A stretch of DNA of 49,966 nt from positions 1 through 49,966 of the IMG/VR virus record IMGVR_UViG_3300017785_006608; one strand, given 5' to 3'. Shown in pieces: positions 8,973 to 47,007 of this stretch. The translations under genes and the position numbers were made by a program. The DNA comes from a virus (Duplodnaviria; Caudoviricetes). The notes under the pieces are model-generated. The model was not told the origin of the DNA. It did not search any database and was given only the letters and a program-made list of their open reading frames with translations. Position 1 is the first letter of the stretch; every line of letters begins with the position of its first letter.

Positions 8973-9460
8973 ATGGTGCTGGAGAATCTGCCCTCTGAGA
9001 GCGTTCCTCTATTGAGGTAGACAGTGCCATCGGCGTTTCATTCAACCCCGTAGACGGTAGCCTCACGGCCTCCTACGTACCGGGACTTGGTGGATCAGAG
9101 AGGAAGCTCGCCGACCGTTCTCCATCGTGGGAACAACAAGCACTCCAGGCCAGCCTCGTGTTCGCGGGGAGCCTGTGCGCGAGGTACCACTAAGCTGGGC
9201 CTCCTTGGCGGATGGAAGTACGGCCACACCGGATTCTTACCCCGTCATGGTCGAGGGAATATGAACTCCTCGATGCCGAGCGTGCTCCTGACAGGCTGCG
9301 CTCGTAAAGCTCAACGCGGGACAGAGACTAACCGCCGTCATGCAGGGTAGTGGGTGAGAGAAGAAGCAGTACCAGTGCAGTCTCGGCAAGTCCCAGGCAT
9401 GGGATACTACCCCGACGGAATAGCATAGGGAGGCAGCGCCTATCTCACGGCCCCTACCAC
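8973..9460 (+). ncRNA. Candidate large structured ncRNA or leader of the late operon
   Basis: No credible ORF. Nested helices with G-U pairs on the + strand, closed by GGGACTTG (9082-9089) / CAAGTCCC (9387-9394). Confidence 0.55.
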
Positions 9461-9506
9461 CCCCGTAGATGAACCACTCCACGCTCACCACCCCCCGAGG
9501 TGTCCC

Positions 9507-16746: not shown

Positions 16747-17442
16747 GTGTTTCTTCTCAAGCTCATGAATGTTTGCCGCGCGCCGGAAGGCGACGGTGGT
16801 GGTGCCGGTGCCGGTGCCGGTGGACAGACTCCGGCCGCTCCGGCCGCTCCGGTGGCTCAGGCTCCCGTGGTCCAGCAGGCCCCGGCGTTCAGCGCCCGCT
16901 CCCACATGCAGCGTTTCCTCAAGACCCCGGAAGCTCCTCAGGTCCGGACCGAGGACGCCGGCAAGCCCTGGACCCACTCGGACCAGCAGGCCCACGATCG
17001 CCGCATGTCGGAGATCAACCAGACCCGCTCCTTCCACGAGGGCCTGCTCGGTCTCGCCGAGAAGCCCTTCGTCTACGGTGAGGGAGACAATGCCCTCACC
17101 TTCGCGTTCTCGGACGCTCCCAGCGTCGAAGGCTACCTCAAGCAGGTCGCCGCCTACGCCGAGAAGGGGTTCACCCCGCAGGACGCCGCCAAGCTCTACC
17201 ACTTCGACGCCGCCATCCAACAGGCCCGCGAGCAAGGTGCTCGCGCCGCAGAGAAGCGCCTCATGACCCAACGTCAGCAGGTCGCCGACGCGTCGGGGAC
17301 CGCAGACGGTGCCGGTGACCCGTTGGCCGAGCCCAAGCGTCCGGCCAAGCAGAAGGGCAACCTCTCGGTGGAGGAAATCTTCGCCAAGAGCTTCCCCGAG
17401 GAACACAAGCGCGTCATGAAAGATGGTTTCAATCTCGGGTAG
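16747..17442 (+). CDS. Capsid scaffolding protein
   Basis: GGAGG SD then GTG 16747; Gly/Ala/Pro-rich N-terminus; immediately before the capsid gene. Confidence 0.75.
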   Translation: MFLLKLMNVCRAPEGDGGGAGAGAGGQTPAAPAAPVAQAPVVQQAPAFSARSHMQRFLKTPEAPQVRTEDAGKPWTHSDQQAHDRRMSEINQTRSFHEGLLGLAEKPFVYGEGDNALTFAFSDAPSVEGYLKQVAAYAEKGFTPQDAAKLYHFDAAIQQAREQGARAAEKRLMTQRQQVADASGTADGAGDPLAEPKRPAKQKGNLSVEEIFAKSFPEEHKRVMKDGFNLG

Positions 17443-21231: not shown

Positions 21232-23259
21232 ATGGAAGAAACTCCGCGCCTTCCCCGTGAGCTCTACCTTCGCTTCGGTCCTGGGCTGATCGACGCCCAG
21301 CAGACCGATCTTGCCCGACTCGGGGAGGGCAGCGTCAACTTCTACCCCTCCGACGAGGGTGAGTACCTCCAAAACTACCCGGGCCGCACGGACTACTTCC
21401 AGCGCAACAAGAACGACAGTTACATCGGGACTCCTCCCTCGCTGTCGACCAGCATCACCCGGATGACCATCTTCTTGGACTTCCGGGGCAAGGAGCATCT
21501 GGTCTTTGTCCAGGGTGCCAACCTGTGTGAGAGCTACGGCAACGGCTTCCGGGTCCTCTACACCTTCCTCGGCCAGCCGTTCAGTGACCGGTACTACCCG
21601 GCTATCTTCGTCCATGCCGCCAAACTGATCATCGCGAACCATGGCGATCCGGTTCTGATGTGGGATGGCCTGGAGAACGTACACCCGCTGGGAGTGCAGG
21701 AAGCAGGACTTCCTCCCGAGGTTCGCGTCTCTCTCCCACCGTTCGTAGCTGCCTGGGTCTATGGGGCTTTCGCCTACGCGACGTACTGGTGGACGCAGAA
21801 GGCCCCCATCTCCGGGCCGAGTAAGTGCAAGGGTGCGGACGGAACTACCCGAGTTTCCTACTACGGGGAGGCCGTCATCCAGTTCGAGGACAAGTATGGT
21901 AACAAGGGTCGCTGCTCTCCTCCTTCTCGTATCTTCGAGGTCAAACCTGAGTATGACCCTGTCCTGTACGAGGGTGCCCCGGCTTACTTCGTATCCGAGT
22001 TCGCCGTTGCCGACTACTACCCTCCCCTGGTAGAAGACCACATCACCGGGGTCACATTCGGTCGCACACTTAATCTCAACCCCGATGGTGGGCTTGGCTC
22101 CCACGGAATCTACTACAAAGAATCCCATCGGCAACAGACGGTCTACAACCGGATCACGATGCAGGCTACTGACGCGGTCCTGACCGCGGGTGGCCTGATC
22201 GATACCTTGGTGAGCGGTCCTCCCCAGGCTTCCGGCGGCTGCTCGTGGAAAGAGCTCGTGGTGTTGTGGGGACTGGAGGACGCGAATGTCGTGGCTATCT
22301 CTGATGACGGGTTCTTCGGACAGTTCCGAGGAAGTCGCCAGTTTCGGGCGAATGACAATGTGCGCGCCGGAGTCCCCATGGGGGACCGCCTCGCTGTCAT
22401 TACTCGATCCACTGTGGAGGTACTGTATCTCGCTAACGATGGGTCGCTCGGGGTCCTCCAACAGGATTTCGCCAATGGTTCGCTCTACGGGCGTTCGTTT
22501 GTTGATGTTGGGGATGGCACAATCTTTGGCCTCTGGAATCGCGGCTTCGCGTTCTACAACGGCGAAACCCACGACTTCGTGGAGTGTCCCTACTACCTCA
22601 AGGCCCTATATCTCGACGAGCGATTTCACGTCCAGTCGGCGGTAAAGGCCAACGAGTGGTACATCCTGACCGTCAGGAAAGACCTGGTCTCTGCCAAGAA
22701 CAACTACATGATCCTGTACCATCTGACGGTACGTCAGTGGTACTTGATTGAAGAGTCGGTCTTCGACCTGTGCTTCTGGGACAACAAGTTCTACGGCTGC
22801 GACAACTCGATCTACCAGTTGTTCCGTGGGACCTACAGCCGCCCGGCGGTGGTGTCGGTCAGGGGGCTGATCCCCCAGGGATCCACCATCTTGAGCCAAC
22901 GCTCGGTCATGAACCTGCGTCTGCTGCTCCAGCCGTCCTCGTCGGCGCAGTTCGGAGTGGACCTGACGGGCGAGTTCAACTCCAACGAAGCCGAATCAGA
23001 CCCCACCTTCTCTCTCCCCTCGGCCCAGTCCGTAGACCGGGCTCGCCAGCCGGTCGACCATTGGGGGAAGGTGAACCTCCTGTACTCCGACCGCCCGCGC
23101 TGGATCGCTCCGCGGGACGTGTGGATCACCCCCGTAATCGGAAATAGCGTGGCCGGGTATAGCCATAGCGTCAAGGTGACGTTCCCGGTAGGGCACCTCG
23201 TCAAGATCAAGGCACTGGGGATCGTCTTCGGTGTCGACCAGCGGACCAACCTGACATGA
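21232..23259 (+). CDS. Putative tail nozzle / stabilisation protein (beta-propeller-like)
   Basis: 675 aa, aromatic and beta-rich, follows the adaptor as in podoviruses. Confidence 0.65.
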   Translation: MEETPRLPRELYLRFGPGLIDAQQTDLARLGEGSVNFYPSDEGEYLQNYPGRTDYFQRNKNDSYIGTPPSLSTSITRMTIFLDFRGKEHLVFVQGANLCESYGNGFRVLYTFLGQPFSDRYYPAIFVHAAKLIIANHGDPVLMWDGLENVHPLGVQEAGLPPEVRVSLPPFVAAWVYGAFAYATYWWTQKAPISGPSKCKGADGTTRVSYYGEAVIQFEDKYGNKGRCSPPSRIFEVKPEYDPVLYEGAPAYFVSEFAVADYYPPLVEDHITGVTFGRTLNLNPDGGLGSHGIYYKESHRQQTVYNRITMQATDAVLTAGGLIDTLVSGPPQASGGCSWKELVVLWGLEDANVVAISDDGFFGQFRGSRQFRANDNVRAGVPMGDRLAVITRSTVEVLYLANDGSLGVLQQDFANGSLYGRSFVDVGDGTIFGLWNRGFAFYNGETHDFVECPYYLKALYLDERFHVQSAVKANEWYILTVRKDLVSAKNNYMILYHLTVRQWYLIEESVFDLCFWDNKFYGCDNSIYQLFRGTYSRPAVVSVRGLIPQGSTILSQRSVMNLRLLLQPSSSAQFGVDLTGEFNSNEAESDPTFSLPSAQSVDRARQPVDHWGKVNLLYSDRPRWIAPRDVWITPVIGNSVAGYSHSVKVTFPVGHLVKIKALGIVFGVDQRTNLT

Positions 23260-32000: not shown

Positions 32001-35000
32001 TCCCAGAGGCCGCCAGCGCGGTCTTCGATCCCAACAAGAACGAGATCCTGTTCCGTGGGTTCGATGATGCTTTCCAGTCCGGGTTGGACGAACATACGGT
32101 GCTGCATGAGCTTACTCACGCAGCCACGTACTACTCTTACCACAACGCGGACGCGACCCCGGTGATCAAGGCCGCCCAGGTGGACCTTACAAACATGCTC
32201 GTCTCTGTGCGAGACGAGATCATCCATTCCGGAACCGACCTCTCTGAAGAGCTCGTCCGCGACTTCCGGTACTACACCAGCAACGTAGATGAGTTGCTGG
32301 CCGGGACTTTCTCGGACCCCAAGTTCCGGGACTACCTCAAGAAGATTCCGGGGGAGAAGAAGTCCAAGGGTGCCCTCACCAGGATGTGGGACAAGTTTGT
32401 CACTACCCTCGGTAACCTGCTTGGCATCAGCCCGAACGAGAGTACCGCCCTTGGCGATATTCTCGGTCGTGGCAACCAACTGATGGAGGACAAGTCCGGA
32501 CCCGAGATTCTTCGTGCCGGCTCCTACATGGATGGTGAGAAGCTCCCGGCTTCACTGGCCAAGGTCAAGGACCCCAACGAGACGTTCAACAAGTTCATGG
32601 ACCAGTTGGCCGCGCCGCTCGAAGTCCGCAAGCTGGAAGGACAGTTCACCCAGCCGATGGTGGACTACTTCCGCGCTGTCCGTCGCAAGTTCGGTATCTA
32701 CACCGACACCGCGTCGCCGACCAAGACCCAGCGCGAGGAGATCACGGAGCTCGCCGGCAAGGTGGGTCTATCGCCGGCGAACCTCAAGGACATCTACACG
32801 CACTTGTGGAACGACGGGGAGATCAAGACGGCGGGGCAGGCTGACCAGGCCATCAAGCTCCTGCGCGGCGAGGTTTACCCCGGCGACGACTCGTCCGAGA
32901 CGGTCAAGTTCGTGCTGGAGTTCACGCCCTCGAAGAACAACCCGCTCGCCCCGCTCGCCGACCCTGCCCTCCAGATGGCCGAGGGCCGGGTACCGGGACG
33001 ATCCGCCCTGGGGCAGACGCTCAAGAACGTCCGCGACCCGGCGATGGCGGCGGGGGTAGTTCCCCCGGACGTGATGGTCGCGGGTGACCAGGGTCTGCCC
33101 GGAACCTCCACCATCGGTCGTCAGGGCCCGTCCCCGCAGTCGGACGCCCTGGGCGACGAGCTTCGGACGTCTACCATCCAGGCAGAGGAGACTCTGCCCG
33201 GCAATATCCAGACGGCCGAGACTCGCATCGCCGAACTCCAGAAGCTTCTGGACGCGTCGAAGGCCGAGCAGGCTCCGACCAAGACGAAGAAAGGTCTGAC
33301 CAAGCGGGCCGCGGACGCGAAGAAGGACTACGACTACAGCAAGACTCTGGTCAAGCAGACCATCGAGGACCATAAGGCGCTGCGGGAGTCGGGTAAGGAA
33401 GTCACCGACGCGATGAAGAAGGAGAAGGAGCGTCGCATCGCGCAGCGCCAGAAGGACAAGAACCGCTTCCTCAAGGTCCAGGTCGAACTCACCGAGAGCA
33501 AGACGACGGCGAAGGATGCGAACCGTGGCGTCAAGGCGACGAGTAAGTACGTCCGCGATCTCGAACGGACGTTGAAGAAGGAACAGTCCAACCTCACTCG
33601 CCTGCAAGCGGACTCGGCGGCCCGCGGCGAGGGAGCTCCCCTCGGCGAAATGGATAAGTTGGGCCGACCGAAGGGCGAGTCCAAGGTCGGCGGTGTCAAG
33701 AAGGAGCCGGTCAAGAATCCGAACCAGCCGATCAAGGTCCCCATCTACGTGGACCAAGGGACGGCGAGGCTGCTCCAGGACATGATGGCGCCGGACATCG
33801 ACCCTCAGTGGTCGAGCTTGACGCGCCAGATGGTCATCGGCTTCGACAAGGTCCAGAGCTTCTTCAAGTCCAACCTGCTGCTGCCGTGGACTGGGTCCTG
33901 GGCCCGTAACGGGATCGGTAACGTCGCGATGGCCTACATGAAGGCTGGCATCGGGATGTTCCACCCGCAGAAGATGGACAACTACTGGGACGCGATGACG
34001 CTCATCCTGGGCAAGTACTCGGACCTGCCGGAGACGGTCGGCGCCCGGCGCGCGAACCTGGACATGATCAGCCAGAAGATGGTCAAGGCTGCCGGCGGTC
34101 GACAGGTCAAGCTCGGCGACCTCGTCGAAGAGATGGCGATGCGCGGCGTGTTCAAAGCGTCCGTGTCCGACGACGTTCTGTCCGGCGTCACGGCGGGCGG
34201 GCGCGCGGCGGCGGCGGTGTCCGGTGGCGCGGCGGGAGCCATGGCGGGGGCCCTGGCCGGGGCCCTGGCGCCCGCTCCCGCCGAGGGGGAACCCGATACC
34301 TGGCGCAACGCAGCGAGCCTCCTGGGAGGGCTTGCCGGGGCCGGCTTGGGGGCTCGTAGCGTGAAGGGGGCGGGCAAGCTGGACAAGGTGATGAACGTCG
34401 CGAGCGAGACGCTTCAGTCCAACTGGAAGCCTTTCCTCCGGCGCGGGGAGATGGCGACGGAGATCCCCGTCCGGATGGCGCTGTTCATGTCCGAGTTCCA
34501 ACGGACGGGATCAACGGCCGAAGCCGCTACCTCCGTCTACCGTCACCTCAACGACTGGAACTCCCTGGGCGTAACTGAACGGCGTTACATCCGGCGCGCG
34601 ATCCCGTTCTACAACTGGACCAAGCTCGCGATCAAGCAGACGTTCTTCACCATGTTGGAGGAGCCGGGCCGGCTGAACAACATGCTCAAGACGGTGCGGG
34701 ACTGGAATGAGTCCGAGCACGTCGACCCCGAGGACATCCCCGACTACCTGCACGAGAAGCTGGTCATGGTCGGGAGCGTGCTGGGTAAGAAGTACAGCGT
34801 CTCCGGGGTGGGACTCCCCATCGAGGATGTGTCCGAGATGGCGAACATGATCCTGCCGGGCACGACCAACTTCCGTAAGGAAGTGGGGGAGTTCTCGCAG
34901 GGTCTCATTCGACGGTCGTCGTTCGTGCCAGCCTCCATCATTGAGGGGCTCACGAACACGGATTCGTTTACGGGGGGTACCATCACCCCGGACGTGGAGA

Positions 35001-35461: not shown

Positions 35462-35862
35462 CAGACCTTCCCGTGCTTGTACGACCTGGAGCGGTTGTGC
35501 TTCATCTTGGCGACCAGCACCTCGATGAACTCGTCCCGCTTGCCGATCGCACCCACGAGGTCGAAGACCCGGATGACAATGTCGGCGAGCTCGGAGAGGA
35601 AACCTTCGATCTTGCCGGCCTTGGGGCCGTCGATGATCTTGGAGGTCCGCATCCCTTCGGGACCTTCCCGGTACGCCTCCAGCGCCTCACTCACTTCGGA
35701 GTGAATGAGACAGAGCTTCTCGGGGATGGTCTTCTCGACGGCCGTGGGCAAGACGCAGTCGTTCTTGTTGTCCCACTGGCCATCCCAGAACCCGTGGTCC
35801 CGGGCGTTGCCGTGGGCTTCGTCGATGTACTGGTGAAGGCTGTTGTAGATGTCGATGGCCAT
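35458..35862 (-). CDS. MazG-like nucleotide pyrophosphohydrolase
   Basis: LCLIHSEVSEALEAYR...SELADIVIRVFDL...KMKHNRSRSYKHGK. Confidence 0.92.
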   Translation of the reverse strand: MAIDIYNSLHQYIDEAHGNARDHGFWDGQWDNKNDCVLPTAVEKTIPEKLCLIHSEVSEALEAYREGPEGMRTSKIIDGPKAGKIEGFLSELADIVIRVFDLVGAIGKRDEFIEVLVAKMKHNRSRSYKHGKVC

Positions 35863-36827
35863 CAGTTCCTCTTGGCGGCGGCTTCCAGTTCCGCCATGGT
35901 CTTGATGCGGACTTCCGCGACCCCGCGCTGGACCGCGGCCTGGTTGATGGGACCAGTGGCGAGCCCGGGATCGCGCTCGTCGCCGATGTGGAGAGCACGC
36001 CCGTCCGCGGACTCGAAGACCGCGTCGATGCCCCGCGTCCCGAAGTCCACGATGGTCAGGTCCGCGGGGTTCCGGTCGGGCACGGCCCGGCCGCCCTTGA
36101 AGTCACCCGCGACGAACGCGGCGAGCGTCTGCGACATGACCTGCACCGTCTCGCCCATGTTGGTCTGGGCATCCCGCACGGCTGCGACCTGCGCGCGGGA
36201 GTTCTTGTCCAGGAACGCACCCGCGCGGTAGAGCACGTCCATCGGGACGATGAGCAGCTTCTCGAACGCCTGCTGCTTGAGCACGTTGGGGTACGGTCCC
36301 TGCAACGTCGCCGCGAGCGCAGCAAGCTGCGCGTCGGTGAGGTCGTTGCCGTCCCGGAGCGCTTCGTCCCCGATCCGCATGATCGCGGAGAGGTTGTTCT
36401 TCTTCGTGGTCCGGTCGATGCCCATCGAGGTGAGCTCCCGGAGGATGGGATCCTCCTCCGGCTCGGGATCCTCGGTGTAGCGGGGCGGATCGCGATTCTC
36501 CTCCAGCTTGGGCTCGTTCCGGCGCGGGGCGGGGGGCTCGATCACGACCTGGTCGCGGGGGGCGATGACCTTGCCCCCCAGGGCCTTGGCGACCTCGGCC
36601 GCGATGTGAGCTTCACGCTCACGGTTCAGGCGCTTGTGGCGCTGCTCATCCGTCTCGGGCGGCGGCTTGGGCGGCGACGGGGGCGCGTCGTCGACGACGA
36701 ACTGGAGGAGGAAGGAGCCGAGCAGGGGCGGCACCTCGAAGTGTTCCCCCGGCTGCTTGCCGTAGACGATGACTTTGACCCCGTCGAGATCGACCGAGGT
36801 AATATAGGGAATGACCAGCTTCTTCAC
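35862..36827 (-). CDS. Hypothetical protein
   Basis: 321-aa ORF, high GC3, AAGGAG SD. Confidence 0.85.
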   Translation of the reverse strand: MKKLVIPYITSVDLDGVKVIVYGKQPGEHFEVPPLLGSFLLQFVVDDAPPSPPKPPPETDEQRHKRLNREREAHIAAEVAKALGGKVIAPRDQVVIEPPAPRRNEPKLEENRDPPRYTEDPEPEEDPILRELTSMGIDRTTKKNNLSAIMRIGDEALRDGNDLTDAQLAALAATLQGPYPNVLKQQAFEKLLIVPMDVLYRAGAFLDKNSRAQVAAVRDAQTNMGETVQVMSQTLAAFVAGDFKGGRAVPDRNPADLTIVDFGTRGIDAVFESADGRALHIGDERDPGLATGPINQAAVQRGVAEVRIKTMAELEAAAKRN

Positions 36828-37265
36828 TTAGTACTCCTTGAGGGAAAGAACCTTGAGCGCGTTCAGGTTGAGGACCAGGACCGGGACTCCTGAATCCGTG
36901 TGGGTGATCTTCTTGGGCAGCGGCAGCCACCCCGTCCGATCCTTGAGAGAGAAGTTCTGCACCACGTCGCAGGGGATGAGCCAGTAGGTATCCTCCCGCT
37001 TCATGTAGTAGATCCCGACTACGAGTGCCCCCGTGTCGTGGAGCATCTTCATCTTCGCTTTCTGGACCGGCGAGAAGTAGTTGCCCTCCATCTTGAGCTC
37101 GGCGCCGAAGAACTGGCCGCGGATGGAGCCGATGATGTCCGGGATACCGGACGGGTCGTACTCACTCGCGTGGAACTTCCAGATGAAGTTCTCGCCAGGG
37201 AAGGCCGCGCCAACCGAACGGGTGAACAGCTTGACGAGGTCGGATTCGAGATTGGTGGGGGGCAT
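36828..37265 (-). CDS. VRR-NUC / Holliday junction resolvase-like nuclease
   Basis: LESD...SGIPDIIG...FFGAELK...SPVQ PD-(D/E)xK pattern; TGATG coupling. Confidence 0.88.
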   Translation of the reverse strand: MPPTNLESDLVKLFTRSVGAAFPGENFIWKFHASEYDPSGIPDIIGSIRGQFFGAELKMEGNYFSPVQKAKMKMLHDTGALVVGIYYMKREDTYWLIPCDVVQNFSLKDRTGWLPLPKKITHTDSGVPVLVLNLNALKVLSLKEY

Positions 37266-37507
37266 CAGTAGAACAGCCTTTGTTGAGGTTCCGGCTTCTT
37301 CTCCACCACCCACCGCGACACGTCCAGGAAGACGTAGGCCAGCGGGGCTTTGAACTCGTTCTTTGCCCTCATCTTGATGCGGATGATGACGCGGTCGCCA
37401 GGCAGGACACCTATGAGGCGTGCCCACTTACCACCGTAGTTGGAGGTCGTGCCCGTGAAGGGGTTGAGGAGGCGGGACTGGGGGATGATCCTAATCCTCT
37501 TGCCCAT
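37265..37507 (-). CDS. Hypothetical protein
   Basis: Coupled at both ends. Confidence 0.75.
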   Translation of the reverse strand: MGKRIRIIPQSRLLNPFTGTTSNYGGKWARLIGVLPGDRVIIRIKMRAKNEFKAPLAYVFLDVSRWVVEKKPEPQQRLFY

Positions 37508-37674
37508 TACTTCTTCTCCTTCGCGGCGACCGCCGCCTGCTCGTAGAGGTCCGCTTGCTTGTCATTCCCCATCAGACGGTTCTTCATTGCCGACGCGGAG
37601 AACTGCTGGTGGAGGGGAAGGAGGTAGTTACGCTCCTTGGTGGCGAGCATCTTGATCATCTTGTCTTGGTTCAT
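37507..37674 (-). CDS. Small hypothetical protein (55 aa)
   Basis: Not in the track; MNQDKMIKMLATKERNY...; ATGA and TAATG overlaps. Confidence 0.75.
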   Translation of the reverse strand: MNQDKMIKMLATKERNYLLPLHQQFSASAMKNRLMGNDKQADLYEQAAVAAKEKK

Positions 37675-39404
37675 CGACCGGCTCCGAACAGTGAGTGCTG
37701 GCGGGATTGCACGTTGGACTTGAGGGGGAAGTTGGAGATGACGAACTCGCCCTTGTCCATGCGAGCATCGCCAGCACCGGCCATCGAGTAGCGGACGTAG
37801 ACCTTCTCCAAGTGAAAGACCGGGGTTCCGTCGGGCCGCTTGAAGGACCCGTAGAGCGCGCGCAGGTCGTCGTGGTCGGAGTTGGTCTGGATGAGTTGGT
37901 TGCCCATCTGGTCAATCTCGTAGCAGAGATTGGCGAGGTTCACTTGGTCTTTCCACCCGAACGCCGACTCACCTTGGAACGTCTTGTACCCCGCCGTCTG
38001 CCAGTAAGGCGGATCGAGATAGAAGAACACTCGACCAGGAGGATAACTCGCGGCGGGGAGGTTCTTGTTACAGGACCGGATGATTCGCTCGTAACCAGTC
38101 GAGCGAATGTTGACGCGGCGCAGGCGCTTCGCAACCTTGATGAGATGGGACTCATCAATCGAAAGGTCCAGAAGGACGTGAGGTGAACTTGCGTACGAAG
38201 AGTAATCTCCCTTGGCATTGAACGCAGACTGAGAGCCAAGGTAAAACGCAACGGCTCGTTCGATCCCTCGGAGCTTGCGGGCGGCCAGCAGGTCACGAAG
38301 GCCAAGTACCACGGCTTCGTGGTTCGGGATGGCATTGATGTACCTCGCCAAGCGCGTGGGGTCCAAGCGGACGTGGTGGAAGAAGGACGCCATGTCCCCG
38401 TCGAAGTCGTTGATGATCTCAATCTTCGACTCGGGCTTCCAGAGGGTCATCTTTACGGAGCCCATGAAGGGCTCGACGTAGGTGTGGTGCGGAGGGAAGT
38501 TCTCCACAAGGAAGGTACGCAGTTGGGACTTAGCTCCCATGCGGGCGATGACGCTTTCCAGCGGCAGGCAGAAGGAAGGCTCGCCGTCCGGCTCGGTGAC
38601 GTTGAAGCCGGTGAGCTTCTCCCAGTCCTCGATCTCCACGTAGGAGTAGTCCTGCTCCAGTCGGAACCCCTGCTCGTTCGGCTCCGGGAGGAACGTGTGG
38701 GTTACGGGACCGAGCTTCCCGGGGAGGAACTCCATTTCGACGGATCGAGCCCCTTCTGCGAGAGGAAGTCCAGGTAGCGAGAAGTCCTCTGCTTCCTCTG
38801 GTCCTCCCACCACAATCGATCCTGGAGCCTCCAGGCGTCGAGAAGCATCTGCTCGCAGTTCGTCAAGAACGTCTCCAAGGGGACGGAGACTTGCTTGTAC
38901 TCCTGCTGCTGGCGCCACTCCTTCTTCCACGTCAGGTGGTTGATGTGGAGCGGACACCACCCGCGGTTCTCCGCGTGACTTGCCCGCAGGTTGAGCAGGA
39001 ACAAGTCCAAGGGCCTCTCGCACACGAAGCAGATGGGAGTCTCGGGATTCACCTGCACGGCGACGGAGACGGGTGTCTTCGCCCCCATCCGATAGATGAT
39101 CTCCTTCATGTACGACGCTTCCGTCCAGGTCTCCGCTTTCCCCTGCCGCTCCACCGGGAGCTTGAGGCAGTACGAGCTCAGGTCCTGGTGATCCAGTCCC
39201 TCCGGGAACGGCTCCGGGAGCGGGATGTTCGGGACCCACACTTCCTCGTCCGCTTCCTGCGTCACGAGGTACGTCGGGACTACTGCCAGCAGTCGGGCCG
39301 GGATGTCCGACGTGTCCACCGGGGAGAACTCCAACGTCACGCGCAGTACCGCCATCACGATGCTCCTTCAACTTCTTGAGCTTGGCGAGGAAGTCGATGG
39401 ACAT
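37671..39404 (-). CDS. D12-class N6-adenine DNA methyltransferase with long disordered N-terminal extension
   Basis: RMGAK, YVEPFMGS, EIINDFD and FFYLDPPY motifs. The true start could be 39404 (TAATG-coupled) or near 38735. Confidence 0.92.
   Translation of the reverse strand: MSIDFLAKLKKLKEHRDGGTARDVGVLPGGHVGHPGPTAGSSPDVPRDAGSGRGSVGPEHPAPGAVPGGTGSPGPELVLPQAPGGAAGESGDLDGSVVHEGDHLSDGGEDTRLRRRAGESRDSHLLRVREALGLVPAQPAGKSRGEPRVVSAPHQPPDVEEGVAPAAGVQASLRPLGDVLDELRADASRRLEAPGSIVVGGPEEAEDFSLPGLPLAEGARSVEMEFLPGKLGPVTHTFLPEPNEQGFRLEQDYSYVEIEDWEKLTGFNVTEPDGEPSFCLPLESVIARMGAKSQLRTFLVENFPPHHTYVEPFMGSVKMTLWKPESKIEIINDFDGDMASFFHHVRLDPTRLARYINAIPNHEAVVLGLRDLLAARKLRGIERAVAFYLGSQSAFNAKGDYSSYASSPHVLLDLSIDESHLIKVAKRLRRVNIRSTGYERIIRSCNKNLPAASYPPGRVFFYLDPPYWQTAGYKTFQGESAFGWKDQVNLANLCYEIDQMGNQLIQTNSDHDDLRALYGSFKRPDGTPVFHLEKVYVRYSMAGAGDARMDKGEFVISNFPLKSNVQSRQHSLFGAGR
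37940..38335 (-). CDS. Candidate overprinted gene inside the methyltransferase (131 aa)
   Basis: GAGGT-6nt-ATG; alternative frame is open over the segment where host GC3 falls. Confidence 0.4.
   Translation of the reverse strand: MPSRTTKPWYLAFVTCWPPASSEGSNEPLRFTLALSLRSMPREITLRTQVHLTSFWTFRLMSPISSRLRSACAASTFARLVTSESSGPVTRTSPPRVILLVECSSISIRLTGRRRGTRRSKVSRRSGGKTK
38702..39358 (-). CDS. Hypothetical protein overlapping the methyltransferase N-terminal extension
   Basis: AAGGAG SD, globular composition, high GC3 in this frame, CFVC...CPLH zinc-like motif. Confidence 0.8.
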   Translation of the reverse strand: MMAVLRVTLEFSPVDTSDIPARLLAVVPTYLVTQEADEEVWVPNIPLPEPFPEGLDHQDLSSYCLKLPVERQGKAETWTEASYMKEIIYRMGAKTPVSVAVQVNPETPICFVCERPLDLFLLNLRASHAENRGWCPLHINHLTWKKEWRQQQEYKQVSVPLETFLTNCEQMLLDAWRLQDRLWWEDQRKQRTSRYLDFLSQKGLDPSKWSSSPGSSVP

Positions 39405-40978
39405 TAGAAGTATTCCTCCACCAGATCCACCAGATCCGACAGGTCAGGCACGGTAGCACGGGCGATGATCTTCTTGCACAGATCCTCCTTACCCCGTAGA
39501 CGGGCCAGCGCGGTGATGCGAGTCTCCACGCGGCGCACGCCTTCATCTACGAGGGCGGGATCCCCGATGAGGATGAGGTCATCCTTCGCACGGGACGCCC
39601 CCGTGTAGAGCAGGTTCCTCGTGATAGCAAAGGCGTGGCGCGGGTCCAGGACCATGATCACGACCGGGGACTCCGAGCCCTGCGACTTGTGGATCGTGCC
39701 GGCGTAGAACCAGTCGACGTACTTGTGGAGGTCGTAGTCCTCCAACTCGTAGATGCGGCCCTGGTCGTTACGGATGATCGCTTGCCGGGCCGACCGCTTG
39801 TAGTCTTCCAGCGTCCCAACCTCCCCGTTGACGAACCCCTGCTTGTAGTCGTTCACAGTGAACATGACCCGGTCTCCACGCGTGAACTTGCTCTTGCCGA
39901 GGGTGCGCTCGGGGAGCAAGTGATGGGAGATGATCTCGTTCAGCTTCTCCGTAGACGAATCCAGCTTGGCTTGCTTCATCGGGGTGATGATGAGGCACTG
40001 ACGGGGAATGTCGGTGAGGCGGAACTTGTCGGCCAGGTAGCCGGAGGTGTAGCAGTCCACCACCCGAGCCTCGATCTCTCCCTTGGGGTAGCGATGGACG
40101 TGGACGTTGGGGAACGACCGTCCGTTCAACCCTCGCCCCTGACGAATCTCCCCTACGAGGTCGATGATGCCGTTGCCCGTCGCCTGCCGCTGTACCTCGG
40201 TGAGAGTGAACAACGGGAGCCACCCACTGTAGATGAAGTCCCGGAACGGCGCGCCGGCTCCGACCGGGAGAAGCTGGTCCACGTCGCCTACGAAGATGAC
40301 ATTGGTCTCGGGACGCAGGGCATCTACGAGGTAGCCCATGAGAGAGGCATCGATCATGCTGCACTCATCCACGAACAGCACGTCCAGGTCCAGCTTGCGG
40401 TAGCTGTTGTACGCGGGCGACTGACCAGGGATGAGGCCGAGCAGGCGGTGGATGGTGCAGGGCTGGACCATGCCGCGGAGCTTGCTCGCCAGCACGGACG
40501 CGGCCTTGCCGGTCGGAGCGCATACCTCCACGATCTTGTTGGAGGCAATCAGCTTCTCGATCATCTCGCCGATGAGGAACGTCTTGCCGGTCCCGGGCCC
40601 GCCATTTAGGATCCCTACCCCGCGCCGTGAAAGCCCTGCCCACGCTACGCACTGGGAAGCACTGTAGCGTGCCTCGGGCGGGGGGCCAAGGGGTAGGGTA
40701 GGGGGCGAACCGAAAGCCCTACAGCGGGCCTCCCAGGTGGCAATACGGGCCTCGCCCACAAGCCCCGAAGCGGAGGCAAAGAGTGGAGGACTGCCGTCGA
40801 GGAAGATCAGATCTCCTTCCTCATAGAGCGGGTGGAGCTCGTGCTTCTGCCAAGTGAGCTTACTAACTCGCTGAAGACGAGCCACCAAGGAAGCGTCAGC
40901 AGCGGTGTGTCCCTGCTCACCAGCGAGCTTGAGCAAGCGCAGAGAAGCGTGGGTCATGCGACCAGTGGGAGCGGGCAT
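39404..40978 (-). CDS. RecD-like SF1B helicase
   Basis: GGPGTGKT, CAPTGKAA, TIHRLL, VDECSM, GDVDQL and TIHKSQGSE. Confidence 0.95.
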   Translation of the reverse strand: MPAPTGRMTHASLRLLKLAGEQGHTAADASLVARLQRVSKLTWQKHELHPLYEEGDLIFLDGSPPLFASASGLVGEARIATWEARCRAFGSPPTLPLGPPPEARYSASQCVAWAGLSRRGVGILNGGPGTGKTFLIGEMIEKLIASNKIVEVCAPTGKAASVLASKLRGMVQPCTIHRLLGLIPGQSPAYNSYRKLDLDVLFVDECSMIDASLMGYLVDALRPETNVIFVGDVDQLLPVGAGAPFRDFIYSGWLPLFTLTEVQRQATGNGIIDLVGEIRQGRGLNGRSFPNVHVHRYPKGEIEARVVDCYTSGYLADKFRLTDIPRQCLIITPMKQAKLDSSTEKLNEIISHHLLPERTLGKSKFTRGDRVMFTVNDYKQGFVNGEVGTLEDYKRSARQAIIRNDQGRIYELEDYDLHKYVDWFYAGTIHKSQGSESPVVIMVLDPRHAFAITRNLLYTGASRAKDDLILIGDPALVDEGVRRVETRITALARLRGKEDLCKKIIARATVPDLSDLVDLVEEYF

Positions 40979-41163
40979 TATTTATCCTCGAAAGCGGGGC
41001 AATCCGCGTCTTCGTTCTTCTCCAGCCACTTGCGCTGGCTTTCTCCGTGGCCTCCTTTCCCGTTTACTCGCACCATAGCTACTCGCAACCAGCGGTAGAC
41101 TTCCTTGTTCTGGTCTTGGACCTTACAATCGGGACCGTTCTTACAGAAGTTACAGTTAAGCAT
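40978..41163 (-). CDS. Small Cys-containing protein
   Basis: AAGGAG SD; MLNCNFCKNGPDC...CPAF. Confidence 0.75.
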   Translation of the reverse strand: MLNCNFCKNGPDCKVQDQNKEVYRWLRVAMVRVNGKGGHGESQRKWLEKNEDADCPAFEDK

Positions 41164-44100
41164 GACGCTCGTGCTCCTTGCGGGTAGTGAGGTACTCGGC
41201 GATCCGCTCCTTGATGCGGTCGTCCGTGAACCGGTAGAAACGTCCATCCTTAGTGAGGAGTCCGTGGGTCATGTGGGCCAGGCGAATGAAGTGCTGCGCG
41301 CCCATGTTGTCCAGCACGTCCGACACGTCGTCCCGTGAGAAGCGTTCGGCTACAGTGAGGAAGTGGAGGTTCTCGTAGCGACGGACCTGATCGAACAGCT
41401 TGACAATGTCCCCCGGCAGCGTCGCCATCGAGGACTTGAGGTGCAGGAACTTGGAGTAGTTCCGCTCGATGAAGTCGCACGCGGCGTCGACGTGCTCGCG
41501 TCCGACTACGAGGTTGTATCCGTCGGTGGAGTAGACCAGTCCGGCCAACCCAGCCGCCAGCCGTGCGACCTTGAAGCGAGCCATCGCAGGAAGAAGAAGG
41601 GTGTTTCCTCCGAATCGTTCGGAAAGCTCGGCAGCGCGCACGAGTACATGTTGGGGATCCACGATGCGGATGCGATCTCTGGTGAGGGACCAAGCCCAGC
41701 CCAGGTGGTAGCGGGCGAGGTCAGTAGTCCATCGGTGCTCACCAGCAGGGACGTGCTGTCGAGTGAAGAGAGATCGGTCACGCAGTTCGTGCTGGATGTG
41801 CAAGTACTCAAGCCGGCCGAGATCCTGCACAGTGCCCATGACTTCGAGCGCTGCTTCGTAGGCGTCCACGGATTTGAGCGATTTGGATCCGCGCGGATTA
41901 GTGAGGTAAAGCATACGAACGTGAGCGAGAGTTGACCGATCACCGTTGGCGGTGAGACGCTCAGCCATACCAGAGGACAGGAGATTAGTGAGACGTCCCA
42001 CGTCTTCAAGCGGCAGCTTAGAAAACTCATCGAGTCCCACATGGGCCCGGTGAGAGGTGGGAAGGAGTCCCCAAGAGAATGCCATACGATTGCCATGAGG
42101 AATGTTACCCCCGACCAAGCCGACGAACGTGGGCTTGGCGTCCATGGTCTTGAACCGCCCCGCGCCGAAGTGCCGGTTGAGGTTCTTAGTGACCGTGCTC
42201 TTGCCAACCGTGGTGTCGCCCAGGACCATGACGGCCGGGCAGACACGCTCCGAGTTCTGGTCGCCGATCTTGATCTGGAACGGCAGAAAGTAGCTCAACA
42301 GGATGGCCAAGGTCATCTCGTCGGAGCCGTAAATCTTGGTGACGTAGTCCCGCACGTCGGCTACGAGGGAGAAGATACGCTCGGTGACCGTGCCATCCCC
42401 GTGTACCACCCCCCGTAGACGCTCCGACATCTCGTCGTTGTTCTGATGGTGGAGGATGTCGCCGTGCGCGGCCTTGAACTCGCGGATAGCGATGGTAAAC
42501 TGCGAGGTCTTGGGGTTGGAGATGAGGTGACCACCGAACGTGTACGTAGTGTTCTCCCGGATCTCAATCCGGTCCTCGCGGATCAGGAACCCGCTACGGT
42601 GGGAGAACTCGAAGTCGGTCTTGTCGTCCCCGGTTGGGGAGTGAATGTCCACGGTGGGGGTGAAGATGACTTGTTCGACCGCTGACTGGTCAATGCGATA
42701 CTCCGCGAACGTACACTTGACCGGCACTCCCAGCGACCCAGCCAGCAGTTTCTGGATGATGTCCTTGGGGGTGCCCACCATCTCGACCTGCTGCTCGGCG
42801 GTCAACTCTACGAACGTCTGGTAGCCGGCCGAGGGGAGGCGACACCCCTTGCAGATGGGCATAGGGTCAGTCCGCCCCACCACGCACGATACCTCGCACC
42901 GCCGGGGGACGACGTATGGTGCCTCACCACGGCCGGAGACCATGCCGTCAAAGCGGACCCAAGCTCCGACGTTGACGGGGTTGACCAGATCACGGAACGC
43001 GACCTGCCGCATGTCGTCCCACAGGACCTCACGCTTATGTGCCGCACCCACTCCTCCCACGTCCTCGGTGAGGGGAAGCTCTTGACGTTCGACCTTGACC
43101 CAATCCAGATACTCCAGCGCAGCAGCATCCCATCCTGCCTTCTTGAGGAAGTCTGTTACGTCGCCCTTGTCCGGGAGCTCCGCGGCTACTTCGGCAGGCC
43201 ATCGTCCGGCTTCCACGGAAGCTCCGACGTTGGCCAGAACTTGGGCAAGTCCCACCACTCCTTTGTCGTTCGGTCCATTAGTTCCTGGTTCCCGTCCGAA
43301 CGTACCATCAACGCCAGTCTGGTCGACGTCGAGCAGAACGCGAACGGATTTCCCAATAAAGAGAGGTAGTAGTTCCTCAGCGTATTGGCCCTCTCCTCCC
43401 GTCCAAGCCACCGCCGGTACCCCAAGCTGGTTGAGTAGAAGGGCTTTGAGTTCACCTCCGACAACGTATACGAAAGGGGAATCATACATCACCTGCATGG
43501 GGTAGAGGTACGGGCCACCATGACCCTTCACGCTGATGACCTTTCCCAGCCCACCGTCCCACTTCGGTTGCCACCCCCACAACTCCTGGTCCGTCAGGCA
43601 TTGGGGAGTGATGATGTCCGGACGCTTCCGAGAAACGACCGGGTTCTCCTTGGTGGAGGACTCGTGTTCCCACACGCAGAAGGTACGGAAAACGTCATGC
43701 TTGCGGACGTTGACGATGCGGTGCAAGGCACCGAGCGCTCGCCCGTCCTTGTTGATGCCACGACCAGAGACGTCTACGAACACGGGGATGAGTACTCGTC
43801 CCGATCCGGGATGCTTGTCGTAGCCGATGCAATACTTCTGGAGCGTCTCCTTGTTGATCCCGTACCGCCCCATCATGAACTGGAGGCGCGGAGCGTCCGT
43901 GTCCCACCAGGCGACCGCACTGATGACGGAGTCGCGAACCTTGGCGTCGGCGACGATGTTGAACTTGGAAGTCTTGTCCCCCGCCTTGACCTGCTTGGCG
44001 TAGACGGGCTTCGTATTGTTGCCCGCCTTCTTCCACAGTCCATACTTCTGGAGCAGGTTCTGGAGGGTAGTGGGAAAGTCCCACCCCTTCATCTTCATGT

Positions 44101-44323
44101 AGAGGGAGAAGATGTCGCCGTGCTCCCCGCAGGTGTGACACTTCCAACCGCCATGCTTGGGGTTGAAGGACAGCGAGGGGGACTTATCTCCGTTGGTGTG
44201 GTTACCGGAGTTGAAGCAGCGTCGGACGTTACCCTTCCCACTACCGAGGAGTTCATCGAACTCCGAAGTCGGGTTGAGTGCGTCTACGAGAAGGGATTTG
44301 ACGTTACGATCCACGGTGGGCAA
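41156..44323 (-). CDS. Primase-helicase: CHC2 zinc finger + TOPRIM + MCM-like AAA+ domain
   Basis: CF...H...CHTC zinc finger; GGELKA and LLDVD TOPRIM; LGDTTVGKS, WGLLP...VGLDEFSKL and LTNPRG are MCM-like. Confidence 0.88.
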   Translation of the reverse strand: MPTVDRNVKSLLVDALNPTSEFDELLGSGKGNVRRCFNSGNHTNGDKSPSLSFNPKHGGWKCHTCGEHGDIFSLYMKMKGWDFPTTLQNLLQKYGLWKKAGNNTKPVYAKQVKAGDKTSKFNIVADAKVRDSVISAVAWWDTDAPRLQFMMGRYGINKETLQKYCIGYDKHPGSGRVLIPVFVDVSGRGINKDGRALGALHRIVNVRKHDVFRTFCVWEHESSTKENPVVSRKRPDIITPQCLTDQELWGWQPKWDGGLGKVISVKGHGGPYLYPMQVMYDSPFVYVVGGELKALLLNQLGVPAVAWTGGEGQYAEELLPLFIGKSVRVLLDVDQTGVDGTFGREPGTNGPNDKGVVGLAQVLANVGASVEAGRWPAEVAAELPDKGDVTDFLKKAGWDAAALEYLDWVKVERQELPLTEDVGGVGAAHKREVLWDDMRQVAFRDLVNPVNVGAWVRFDGMVSGRGEAPYVVPRRCEVSCVVGRTDPMPICKGCRLPSAGYQTFVELTAEQQVEMVGTPKDIIQKLLAGSLGVPVKCTFAEYRIDQSAVEQVIFTPTVDIHSPTGDDKTDFEFSHRSGFLIREDRIEIRENTTYTFGGHLISNPKTSQFTIAIREFKAAHGDILHHQNNDEMSERLRGVVHGDGTVTERIFSLVADVRDYVTKIYGSDEMTLAILLSYFLPFQIKIGDQNSERVCPAVMVLGDTTVGKSTVTKNLNRHFGAGRFKTMDAKPTFVGLVGGNIPHGNRMAFSWGLLPTSHRAHVGLDEFSKLPLEDVGRLTNLLSSGMAERLTANGDRSTLAHVRMLYLTNPRGSKSLKSVDAYEAALEVMGTVQDLGRLEYLHIQHELRDRSLFTRQHVPAGEHRWTTDLARYHLGWAWSLTRDRIRIVDPQHVLVRAAELSERFGGNTLLLPAMARFKVARLAAGLAGLVYSTDGYNLVVGREHVDAACDFIERNYSKFLHLKSSMATLPGDIVKLFDQVRRYENLHFLTVAERFSRDDVSDVLDNMGAQHFIRLAHMTHGLLTKDGRFYRFTDDRIKERIAEYLTTRKEHERHA
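41506..42096 (-). CDS. Candidate overprinted gene inside the helicase domain (196 aa)
   Basis: Alternative frame is open; host GC3 drops at the ATG and recovers after the TAG; GGGGGT upstream. Confidence 0.45.
   Translation of the reverse strand: MAIVWHSLGDSFPPLTGPMWDSMSFLSCRLKTWDVSLISCPLVWLSVSPPTVIGQLSLTFVCFTSLIRADPNRSNPWTPTKQRSKSWALCRISAGLSTCTSSTNCVTDLSSLDSTSLLVSTDGLLTSPATTWAGLGPSPEIASASWIPNMYSCALPSFPNDSEETPFFFLRWLASRSHGWRLGWPDWSTPPTDTTS
43186..43485 (-). CDS. Candidate overprinted gene inside the TOPRIM domain (99 aa)
   Basis: AGGT-5nt-ATG; host uses rare CTA/GTA/GGA codons over this span; balanced protein composition. Confidence 0.5.
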   Translation of the reverse strand: MIPLSYTLSEVNSKPFYSTSLGYRRWLGREERANTLRNYYLSLLGNPFAFCSTSTRLALMVRSDGNQELMDRTTKEWWDLPKFWPTSELPWKPDDGLPK

Positions 44324-44337
44324 CCCTGGTCGAGAAG

Positions 44338-44649
44338 TTAGGCGTGAGCCGAGTAGTCGTAGCTCGGATTCATCGTCGCCAGGTGGACCGTCAGACCGTG
44401 CTGCACGCGCCAGTAGCTAAGGATGTCGGGGATCATGCTCCGCTCGAAGTCTTGCGGCGCGGTGATGGAGATGATGGTGGTGGTGTGTCGCTTCGCCGTC
44501 TCGGCCAGCCCGTAAGCCTGAACCTTGATCTCCGACAGCGTCATGTCCTCCATGACGCGAAGCCCTTCGGCGTCCAGGTCTTCGAGGGACCGAACAAGAA
44601 GGGTCTTTCCGGAGTGAGGAAGACCGAACAGAAGGATGATGGTCTTCAT
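44338..44649 (-). CDS. Small P-loop-like protein
   Basis: IILLFGLPHSGKT; only 103 aa. Confidence 0.75.
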   Translation of the reverse strand: MKTIILLFGLPHSGKTLLVRSLEDLDAEGLRVMEDMTLSEIKVQAYGLAETAKRHTTTIISITAPQDFERSMIPDILSYWRVQHGLTVHLATMNPSYDYSAHA

Positions 44650-44753
44650 TACTTACCCCGGAGCCAGTTGAAGAGGTCGATCAGAACCAGGACACACATG
44701 CCGAGGAAGATCCCCAGCGTAGTGTAGTAGAGCATCTGGAGGAAGATGATCAT
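44649..44753 (-). CDS. Small single-TM protein (34 aa)
   Basis: MIIFLQMLYYTTLGIFLGMCVLVLIDLFNW; coupled at both ends. Confidence 0.7.
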   Translation of the reverse strand: MIIFLQMLYYTTLGIFLGMCVLVLIDLFNWLRGK

Positions 44754-45427
44754 TCTTGCTTCTCCCAATGGGACACGAGCCGGGGCTGGGTGGAGCAGTA
44801 GTCGTAGGCGGTCTTGATCGCACTCAACCAGGAGTTGTAGTTGAGGAAGCGTCCAGCTACGGAGGGGTGCGGCGCGTAGATGATGTTGTCGTGGTACGAC
44901 ACGTACCCATCCGTGCCCACCCCGAGGGCGTTGACCAGGATGCTCTGGTGGTCGAAGCCGCTCCAGCCGATGGCCTCATGGACCTGGTAGCGGGCCCACT
45001 GACCGAAGGCGAGGATGACCTTGGGCTTGAGGTCCCGGATCTCTACCATCAGGTAGGGCCGGCAGTTGCGGAGCATCCGCATGTTGGGAGCGGCGTTGCC
45101 CGGCGTCGCGCACTTGGCTGCCTGCGTCCCGTAGACCTGCTTGCTCGTGAGCCCGAGGTGAGCGACCATACCCAGCACGTACCGCTCGTGGTTGGTCTTG
45201 AGGTGGTCCCAGTCCGGGCCGTTGTAGTGGAGCATGTACGCCCCGTGGAGGCAGCGTACCTTGTCCTGCGGAGGGTTCTGCGCCACGATCATGAGGTCGG
45301 GGGCGACGCTCCCGGCGCCGTAGCGGGGGGAGGGGTAGACCGCTTGGCAGTCCTTGTCCTGACCGCACTTGCGGCAGGACATGATCATGTTGCGAAGCTG
45401 CTCACGTGGCATAGTGGGGTGGGGCAT
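44750..45427 (-). CDS. Uracil-DNA glycosylase superfamily protein (family 4-like, Fe-S)
   Basis: CRKC, MIVAQNP, AKCATPGNAAP, CRPYL, LKPKVILAFG and HPS. Confidence 0.88.
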   Translation of the reverse strand: MPHPTMPREQLRNMIMSCRKCGQDKDCQAVYPSPRYGAGSVAPDLMIVAQNPPQDKVRCLHGAYMLHYNGPDWDHLKTNHERYVLGMVAHLGLTSKQVYGTQAAKCATPGNAAPNMRMLRNCRPYLMVEIRDLKPKVILAFGQWARYQVHEAIGWSGFDHQSILVNALGVGTDGYVSYHDNIIYAPHPSVAGRFLNYNSWLSAIKTAYDYCSTQPRLVSHWEKQE

Positions 45428-45627
45428 TACTTCCTCTTCTTGCGATCGTTCCAGAGGTTGTTGAGACGGATGCATTCGTCTACCTGGGCTGGTCCCTGGT
45501 GGACGACCACGTCTGGATGCCCATGGTGGTCGAGATAGGGCCTGGCAAAGTGAGCCGTCTTGAGCTTGCCCGTCCCGTCGTAGACGCGCACGATGGCGCC
45601 GGTCTGGACACTAAAGTCTTCGATCAT
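45427..45627 (-). CDS. Hypothetical protein
   Basis: GGAG SD before ATG 45627; TAATG coupling. Confidence 0.75.
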   Translation of the reverse strand: MIEDFSVQTGAIVRVYDGTGKLKTAHFARPYLDHHGHPDVVVHQGPAQVDECIRLNNLWNDRKKRK

Positions 45628-46035: not shown

Positions 46036-47007
46036 TCAGAAGGGGATGGGCGTTCCGTCGGCGGCGGTCTTGGAGGGGTCTCCGGTCACCGGGACCGAGA
46101 GATCTTCGTCCGGCACCACCGCACCGGAGTACTTGACCGCGAACTTGGTCACCGGCTCGACCATCTGCTTGATCACGTTGGCGTAGGTGAGGGGGTCCAC
46201 CACGCCGGCAAACTCGGGATCGAGTTGGGCGTACTTGAATCCGATCGGCGGCTCGACCACGTCGATGGAGAGCTTGAACACGGAGGCGGTGACCGGCACG
46301 CGGCGGGCCGCGGCCATGATCGCCATCGTCTCCAGCGGCTTGCGGTTGGAGCCGTAGGACACGGTGAGCGTGGCGAACGGGTCGATGGTCTGGTCGTTGG
46401 CGAAGAAGTAGAGCTCCTCGCTGCGCTCGCCGGGAAGCGCCATGCCCTTGACCATGATCATGAGGAACAGGGTGCGCCCCTCCTGGCACGCCTTGCGCTT
46501 CGAGCCGCCCTCCGGCTTGCCCTCCCACGCGTCGCTCGACTCGAACTGGTTGTACGGGCAGCGACCGCAGGAGAAGTACACGTTCTCCTTGAGCTCGGGC
46601 GTGACCGGGAGGAGGTACGGCTGCCGGTAGTGCTCGTTGATGAGCCAGTTGCCGCTGACCTGCTCGGCGAGCAGCTTGTTGGGGTCGGTGAAGCCGACCG
46701 AGCACACGGGGAACTTGCCCCACGTCCCGGCCTTCTTGTCCGCCTCGGGCGGCCAGAGCGCACGCGTGCCGTAGATGTCCACGGCGGTAGCGTACACGCT
46801 CTTGACCGAGCGGACGAGCTCGCCGCCGATCTTGATGTCGAAGAGACCGGTCTCCTTGTTCATGGTCAGGGTGGTGATGAGCTTGCGCTCATCGACCGAG
46901 GACTTGAAGCGGTCCTCGGCGCCGGCCTCGGCCTGCCCACCGAGCATGGCGAGGTAAGCGATGACGTCGGAGGACGAGGCGGGGATGACGGTGGGGAGGT
47001 TGGACAT
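46036..47007 (-). CDS. Putative single-stranded DNA-binding protein
   Basis: Very strong codon bias, Cys cluster (CGRCPYNQF...KAC), acidic tail ending PIPF, close to the exonuclease gene. Confidence 0.65.
   Translation of the reverse strand: MSNLPTVIPASSSDVIAYLAMLGGQAEAGAEDRFKSSVDERKLITTLTMNKETGLFDIKIGGELVRSVKSVYATAVDIYGTRALWPPEADKKAGTWGKFPVCSVGFTDPNKLLAEQVSGNWLINEHYRQPYLLPVTPELKENVYFSCGRCPYNQFESSDAWEGKPEGGSKRKACQEGRTLFLMIMVKGMALPGERSEELYFFANDQTIDPFATLTVSYGSNRKPLETMAIMAAARRVPVTASVFKLSIDVVEPPIGFKYAQLDPEFAGVVDPLTYANVIKQMVEPVTKFAVKYSGAVVPDEDLSVPVTGDPSKTAADGTPIPF

Follow-up and report, generated by a model that had tools for sequence, protein, structure and literature searches.

The replication operon of a freshwater tailed phage likely reads some of its stretches twice. 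Across the 49,966-nt contig IMGVR_UViG_3300017785_006608 (Duplodnaviria; Caudoviricetes), analyzed in its entirety and hereafter termed the window, this is the best overall explanation for a set of open reading frames (ORFs) lying in the +1 frame of the genes for a DNA adenine methyltransferase and a primase-helicase. The strongest overlap, between the N-terminal arm of the methyltransferase and a gene for a cysteine (Cys)-knuckle protein, is very probably dual-coding, with both predicted products translated. Three further nested ORFs, which a preliminary description had reported on the same strand inside these two enzymes and which indeed exist there, are likely, but unproven, young hidden genes, as judged from codon usage and start signals. 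The features concerned are as follows (GC3, GC content at third codon positions; SD, Shine-Dalgarno energy in kcal/mol, computed against an assumed anti-SD tail):

37671..39404, minus strand: DNA adenine methyltransferase, long frame, 577 aa, PF02086 at residues 290-525; SD −9.3
38702..39355, minus strand: 217-aa Cys-knuckle protein (CFVC...CPLH), whose gene lies entirely inside the long methyltransferase frame, in its +1 frame; own SD −8.0; GC3 0.88
38335->37940, minus strand: nested +1 ORF of 131 aa, ATG to stop, in the methyltransferase catalytic domain
41156..44314, minus strand: primase-helicase with CHC2 Zn ribbon and MCM P-loop; contains three +1 ORFs
42096->41506, minus strand: nested +1 ORF of 196 aa, ATG to stop, in the helicase ATPase core
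43485->43186, minus strand: nested +1 ORF of 99 aa, ATG to stop, in the primase region

Overprinting inside the replication enzymes, as first proposed, is supported in part, whereas the best-supported overlap, that of the Cys gene with the methyltransferase frame, had been missed. The ATG of the long methyltransferase frame at 39404 is coupled to the stop of the upstream RecD gene as TAATG and preceded by a GGAGG SD; the frame encodes a ~225-aa N-terminal arm rich in glycine, serine, proline and acidic residues, likely disordered, followed by the D12 catalytic domain. A shorter start at 38735 (354 aa) is a possible alternative. An upstream Cys-knuckle gene was present in seven of the ten relatives with methyltransferase DNA examined for this overlap (handles with L denote DNA loci, those with P database proteins), and the methyltransferase frame ran stop-free through it in 7/7; the other three, L011, L012 and L014, have a short methyltransferase and no upstream Cys gene. 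Across the window and the seven relatives, not one methyltransferase-frame stop was observed over the Cys gene in any of the eight genomes, compared with a summed expectation of 86 (4.5, 6.1, 8.0, 15.7, 6.1, 7.6, 23.3 and 15.1 per genome), and even the low-GC3 relatives kept the frame open (P = 7e-14 for L004, 4e-9 for L001 and 1e-8 for L008). The arm ATG is located at or adjoining the stop of the upstream gene. Conserved residues occur in each frame. The nested Cys proteins of the relatives are <30% identical to that of the window, yet two Cys knuckles are retained in 8/8 genomes. In the arm frame, the motif GE[ST]/DES...R[LMV] recurs in the window phage, L009, L082, L001, P0043 and P0061 at positions where the Cys-frame residues vary; noted by eye in four of the eight DNA loci and two database proteins, it is modest evidence for the arm. 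Both frames are open beyond chance, and a long arm is present in 25 of 72 methyltransferase homologs.

Alternatively, the frame could be open to permit −1 ribosomal frameshifting, by which the zinc finger would be joined to the methyltransferase, and homolog P0075 does carry a Cys-gene-like N-terminus fused in frame with its methyltransferase. However, in 8/8 genomes the arm frame begins at an ATG that precedes the start codon of the Cys gene, and the arms open with similar short hydrophobic segments, all of which would be needless for frameshifting; we regard this explanation as very improbable. As to the relative age of the partners, the Cys gene follows the codon usage of the genome (GC3 0.88) while the arm departs from it (GC3 0.44), which by the criterion given in the parts of PMC8227390 drawn on here makes the arm the likelier newcomer. 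The arm is thus probably the younger partner, with low-GC relatives blurring the picture.

The Cys protein is predicted to bind zinc. It had no family match in Pfam or PHROGs (one weak match was obtained for one relative's protein), only sub-0.9 leads to small viral proteins in an Atlas search, and an uninformative predicted fold (pLDDT 58) for which Foldseek found no match in BFVD. When the Cys-gene alignment was used as a search profile, only two proteins were recovered, that of the window and one that, at 148 aa, is as long as the L002 protein. The protein collection lists the Cys gene plus a short methyltransferase for the window genome, whereas L002, L008 and other relatives are represented by the long methyltransferase; gene callers permit one frame per stretch, so that one overlap partner is easily lost. 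A search of open-access text, with subscription journals outside its scope, returned no paper on an overprinted methyltransferase arm. In L014, ORFs upstream of the methyltransferase match the P0105 arm in two other frames.

In a +1 overlap, the third position of the host codon is the second position of the nested codon, the main determinant of hydrophobicity and charge, so that a nested protein under selection has to break the G/C wobble bias of its host. Indeed, host GC3 is lower inside than outside each of the three flagged ORFs (0.65 vs 0.87 for the 131-aa, 0.61 vs 0.78 for the 196-aa and 0.48 vs 0.77 for the 99-aa ORF), and these dips persist after correction for amino acids (z = −5.5, −7.0 and −8.5, respectively). 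That the dips begin at about the nested ATG was borne out for both helicase ORFs (change points at −5 codons for the 196-aa and −1 codon for the 99-aa ORF), but only loosely for the methyltransferase ORF (+22 codons, interval −6 to +28). The nested ATGs lie at helicase codons 276 and 739 and at methyltransferase codon 134. The 3′ ends of the dips fit poorly, falling 23 (131-aa) and 26 (196-aa) codons short of the stop or 53 codons past it (99-aa). Among the rare codons said to mark the dips, GGA, CTT and ACT are raised in some ORFs and GTA is not; CTA is raised in the 99-aa ORF alone (3/12 leucine codons) and absent from the other two.

The SD-like motifs described before each ATG have computed energies of −7.8 (131-aa), −10.0 (196-aa) and −5.8 kcal/mol (99-aa, weak), yet only that of the methyltransferase ORF is stronger than the host amino acids impose (P = 0.009; P = 0.18 and 0.22 for the helicase ORFs). 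For the flagged ORFs, a synonymous shift of the host from the nested start thus coincides with a translation signal. We consider the 196-aa core ORF to be probably translated; for the 99-aa ORF the balance tips slightly towards translation, and for the 131-aa ORF it falls a little short of even. The three products had no family match in Pfam or PHROGs and contain no strong hydrophobic segment (best 19-residue Kyte-Doolittle mean 1.58). The 99-aa product is balanced in composition, had no usable match in the Atlas search, and its fold predicted from the single sequence was uninformative (pLDDT 47). Neither the +2 nor the antisense frames of the flagged patches showed a stop deficit, and a search for an embedded origin, repeats, promoters or terminators that could account for the dips found nothing beyond chance.

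ORF length alone separates the three poorly from chance. The shuffling check suggested earlier gave an excess of +1 ATG ORFs of at least 99 aa (8 in 47 genes vs 3.7 expected, P = 0.02), but thresholds of 131 and 196 aa gave no significant excess (P = 0.21 and 0.17, respectively). The probability of a stop-free frame was 0.21 (131-aa), 0.026 (196-aa) and 0.084 (99-aa) in a context-aware model, and 0.20, 0.04 and 0.006 after shuffling within patches. What is rare is the coincidence of signals. Considering the 11 low-GC3 patches away from gene starts, and shuffles that retain each patch's codon usage, an SD, an ATG and an ORF of at least 95 codons coincide with the patch start in three, as compared to 0.27 expected (P = 0.0008); without the SD requirement, 0.56 are expected (P = 0.008). 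In line with this, among the 12 +1 ATG ORFs of at least 85 aa in the window, the five followed by a dip have SD energies of −5.8 to −10.0, the other seven of −5.1 to +2.4.

A nearly identical test (ORF of 90 codons, 20-codon window) was applied to other DNA. With the window genome excluded, the coincidence recurred at 2/10 dips in relatives (0.30 expected, P = 0.03) and at 3/23 dips in distant primase-helicase loci (0.22 expected, P = 0.001), compared with 0/74 dips in other phage loci and none in the +2 frame. A hidden dual-coding set, as first proposed, hence gains from this recurrence in other genomes, but most dips lack such an ORF. The distant replicates reside in DnaE (L050, L051) and a primase-helicase (L066), with a TTG-start case in an SNF2 helicase (L032); the distant loci had been chosen around replication genes and so do not establish that such enzymes are favoured. 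In L051, GC3 is 82-92% outside and 65-75% under the nested ORF, and in both L051 and L032 the dip matches the nested ORF at both ends (40-codon resolution). The approximate starts of these nested +1 ORFs with strong SDs at dips, on the plus strand of phage-like contigs, are L051:11700, L050:14519, L066:7582 and L032:8198. As automatic gene calling did not recover the methyltransferase of the window, the 131-aa ORF is absent from the replication, zero-stop-window and shared-ORF scans; the near-duplicate loci L013 and L017 were excluded from the dip, change-point, long-run, zero-stop and replication analyses.

The metagenome scan for relatives covered 25 of 64 parts, and the relatives with DNA share 33-50% helicase identity, the nearest DNA being 50-60% identical; no close relatives were found in the viral and genome contigs searched. 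In the helicase core, a long open +1 frame occurs in 6/17 genomes, all with z ≤ −2.4, while the other 11 have z ≥ −1.3 (Fisher P = 8e-5, an overstatement given the relatedness of the genomes and the post hoc choice of the tested interval). The start of the 196-aa ORF is matched by an ATG at the same codon in L009 (139 aa, SD −11.3) and by a TTG in L014 (110 aa). At the 131-aa site, the frame is closed in L009, L082, L001 and L003, and L004 and L008 share a separate 106-aa methyltransferase ORF there, with a fourfold-site identity of 22/38 vs 14/50. L005 and L012 share a 112-aa ORF (39/53 vs 120/279), over which both are less alike to the non-carrier L011 (10/53 and 18/58). The 99-aa region holds at least one +1 stop in 15/15 relatives and shares a lineage-specific insertion with the closest homologs, P0002-P0006. 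The closest homologs of the two host enzymes, P0002-P0006 and P0037-P0041, show 52-64% identity. Within L014:9286-13591, deep dips accompany several long +1 frames in the helicase and methyltransferase.

Several observations weigh against dual coding at the flagged ORFs. A GC3 dip had been taken as a signature of dual coding, and on its own it proved insufficient: the 16 window patches of at least 50 codons hold 57 +1 stops vs ~59 expected, hence no net deficit, and the low-GC3 patches without long nested ORF, raised earlier as a caveat, are real. The thresholds of the joint test were chosen after viewing the window genome, and one of the two replicates in the family is the same site as the 196-aa core ORF. 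The SD of the latter lies on a conserved Gly-Gly and has an energy of −4.8 or stronger in 19/19 relatives shown. In the relatives' dips, zero-stop windows numbered 2/13 vs 0.8 expected (P = 0.16), and improbably long +1 runs were not in excess in the family (35.7 per 100,000 codons vs 35.2 and 25.5). L009, the closest relative with DNA, retains only the core ORF of the three. Stops in the +1 frames of close homologs together with a lack of synonymous constraint had been named beforehand as the mark of a spurious set, and this pattern is found in part: in L009, the 99-aa and 131-aa sites retain their dips (z = −3.0 and −2.4) but contain five +1 stops each, and at the third site, the core ORF shared with the window phage, fourfold identity is at saturation (16/53 vs 62/213), with no synonymous suppression and a nested identity of 34/133 vs 36 under the null. 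A quick, unfinished tree places L012 as sister to L011 rather than L005, so that the likeness of L005 and L012 may reflect recombination. Finally, a stop-free +1 run of 161 codons in L011 is accompanied by neither a dip nor an ATG.

One rival explanation holds that the dips under the flagged ORFs arose otherwise (by past recombination with relatives of lower GC, a local mutational bias or tuning of the translation rate), that the ORFs are by-products, and that only the Cys overlap is real. Its logic is that third positions rich in T give rise to +1 ATGs and at the same time keep +1 stops away, in agreement with the many patches that lack such an ORF or any net stop deficit, the dips that L009 keeps without two of the three ORFs, the modest stop-free probabilities (0.03-0.21) and the run in L011. 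Likewise, homologs of gene 46036-47007 have a +1 ORF in common that was discarded as a candidate because the host sequence alone accounts for it. Yet codon-usage-preserving shuffles rarely produce the SD+ATG+ORF coincidence in the window or in other genomes; the dips in L051 and L032 are bounded by the nested ORF at both ends; and the insertion common to P0002-P0006 and the 99-aa region speaks against a distant donor. We consider this explanation rather unlikely.

It is improbable that the ORFs are translated into functionless noise or decaying remnants, with dips as relics from an ancestor shared with L009. The leftover dips with stops in L009 and the lack of conservation of the nested sequence would fit, and, in the parts of PMC4324244 drawn on here, the authors raise the same possibility for the expressed ORFs of mycobacteriophage Patience. 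That phage provides the closest precedent: its gene 91, encoding the DNA polymerase III alpha subunit, is described there as containing an embedded same-strand, out-of-frame ORF with a ribosome-binding site, whose product was detected by mass spectrometry (17 instances of 7 peptides) and which is 30% identical in one relative (53% for the host) and absent from a more distant one (PMC4324244). The window phage and L009 are alike in this respect, with 34/133 nested identity over the core ORF vs 64% for the host. A 372-nt ORF of Patience gene 91, matched to the published one by length only, lies in the +1 frame and shows no dip (z = −0.6) and an unremarkable stop-free probability (P = 0.34). As it shows neither signal, an ORF can be translated and yet escape dip and stop tests; nor does translation necessarily point to selection. 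Nevertheless, z values of −5.5 to −8.5 against the codon bias of the genome are hard to keep without present or recent selection, and two pairs of relatives, L005/L012 and L004/L008, show constraint. The situation here also differs from that described for Patience in that a module holds several ORFs with deep dips in addition to a family-wide overlap.

Assembly error as the source of the nested ORFs is ruled out by independent contigs from three other runs, which span all 30 bins of 35500-45500 with 0 indels and 5 substitutions, none of them (0/5) within the three flagged ORFs; as these runs agree without indel, the window sequence is sound. In a single contig of one run (X3), a substitution at 41158 converts the primase-helicase stop to a Gln codon. 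Freshwater metagenome runs carry the phage, and no RNA dataset was found among the runs listed as carrying its contig.

Under the preferred reading of twofold decoding, ribosomes would initiate at SD/ATG sites within the methyltransferase and primase-helicase genes, shifted by one base from the host frame, so that the polycistronic replication mRNA would yield additional small proteins. With the nested product under selection, the third codon positions of the host would be driven away from G/C in favour of T and A, which presumably causes the dips. Such sites may be born where conserved host residues already supply SD and start, for example Gly-Gly encoded as GGNGGN plus an xAT-G junction. The 217-aa predicted zinc-binding protein in the methyltransferase arm, kept across the family, would represent an old stage, now permanent, and the three flagged ORFs, lineage-restricted, fast-changing and turning over, a young one. 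The products would most likely act as accessory proteins made along with the replication enzymes. More tentatively, replication-enzyme coding sequence could be a recurring nursery of new genes in this phage family and its distant kin; it is conceivable that conserved catalytic motifs give ribosome-binding sites and that +1 genes recur at the same sites in separate lineages, reshape the wobble positions of their hosts, turn over and sometimes persist.

Out-of-frame ORFs overlapping a phage primase-helicase have a counterpart in T7, whose genes 4.1 and 4.2 overlap the primase-helicase gene 4; the helicase classes are unrelated, that of the window phage being MCM-type. Embedded +1 genes in tailed phages are already known: as covered in the portions of PMC6139136 and PMC4283147 drawn on here, fully embedded examples include the spanins lambda Rz1, in Rz, and T7 18.7. 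In contrast to Rz1 and T7 18.7, the hosts in the window are enzymes rather than i-spanins, and the nested genes are not part of a lysis cassette. An embedded, Rz1-like o-spanin was thus rejected as a candidate, given the enzyme hosts, the lack of an N-terminal hydrophobic signal (by hydropathy and inspection) and the lack of a PHROG match. With the de novo overprinted viral accessory genes of PMC8227390, as far as the sections drawn on describe them, the candidates share a restricted distribution, rapid evolution and a disorder-prone partner frame; the curated set there comprises eukaryotic viruses, whereas here the hosts are catalytic cores of double-stranded DNA phage enzymes and the methyltransferase arm. 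Permutation tests for overlapping ORFs are described in PMC6188560, within the parts drawn on here.

The phage is assigned to the tailed phages by its terminase, portal and major head protein genes. On the minus strand, its replication module comprises the primase-MCM helicase, a RecD-like helicase, the familyless gene 39355->38702 (the Cys gene) and the D12 adenine methyltransferase ending at 37671; the identity of the latter as a D12-class N6-adenine methyltransferase follows from its PF02086 domain and a DPPY motif invariant in the homolog alignment. The remaining features of interest are:

39404..40978, minus strand: RecD-like helicase, whose N-terminal low-GC3 patch without nested ORF serves as control; its stop overlaps the long methyltransferase ATG
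42808..43128, minus strand: weak candidate +1 ORF of 106 aa (SD −7.9), covering the tail of the 99-aa ORF's dip, with no codon shift over its whole length
22286..22645, plus strand: weak candidate +1 ORF of 119 aa (SD −9.3) at a dip in gene 21232-23259, which has no family match and lies among virion genes

The 22286..22645 ORF is a candidate outside the replication module. A 165-aa +1 ORF at 16769-17266 (plus strand) in gene 16747-17442 has neither SD nor dip and looks like chance, and the low-GC3 patches at 26679-27540, 31802-32123, 40603-40978 and 13899-14322 have ordinary +1 stop counts. About 2.5 kb between the divergent arms (7100-9600) contain no clear codon-periodic gene. In three relatives, the giant virion gene (L007:12010-17506, L015:12512-18080 and L016:11107-16837, minus strand) holds a basic +1 ORF of 109-111 aa with the same ATG, SD and stop in all three and synonymous constraint in one of three pairs.

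The methyltransferase ends in QHSLF (37671-37700, minus strand), and Qx[SGDA][LM]F occurs within the final 25 residues of 43/72 family methyltransferase homologs, compared with 0/48 distant methyltransferases (P0036-P0155). This resembles the beta-clamp-binding motif QL(S/D)LF given in the part of PMC9690074 drawn on here, and the enzyme may ride the host beta clamp.

With its ~220 codons, the old overlap offers a concrete example in which to ask how one sequence serves two proteins. Provided that the flagged ORFs are real, a second gene can reside in the catalytic core of an essential enzyme, and the birth of genes by overprinting would be traceable within one tailed-phage family whose homologous sites show old, young and closed states. 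Should replication-enzyme genes indeed act as a nursery, the combined test for SD, ATG and codon dip would expose a large unannotated proteome in high-GC phages.

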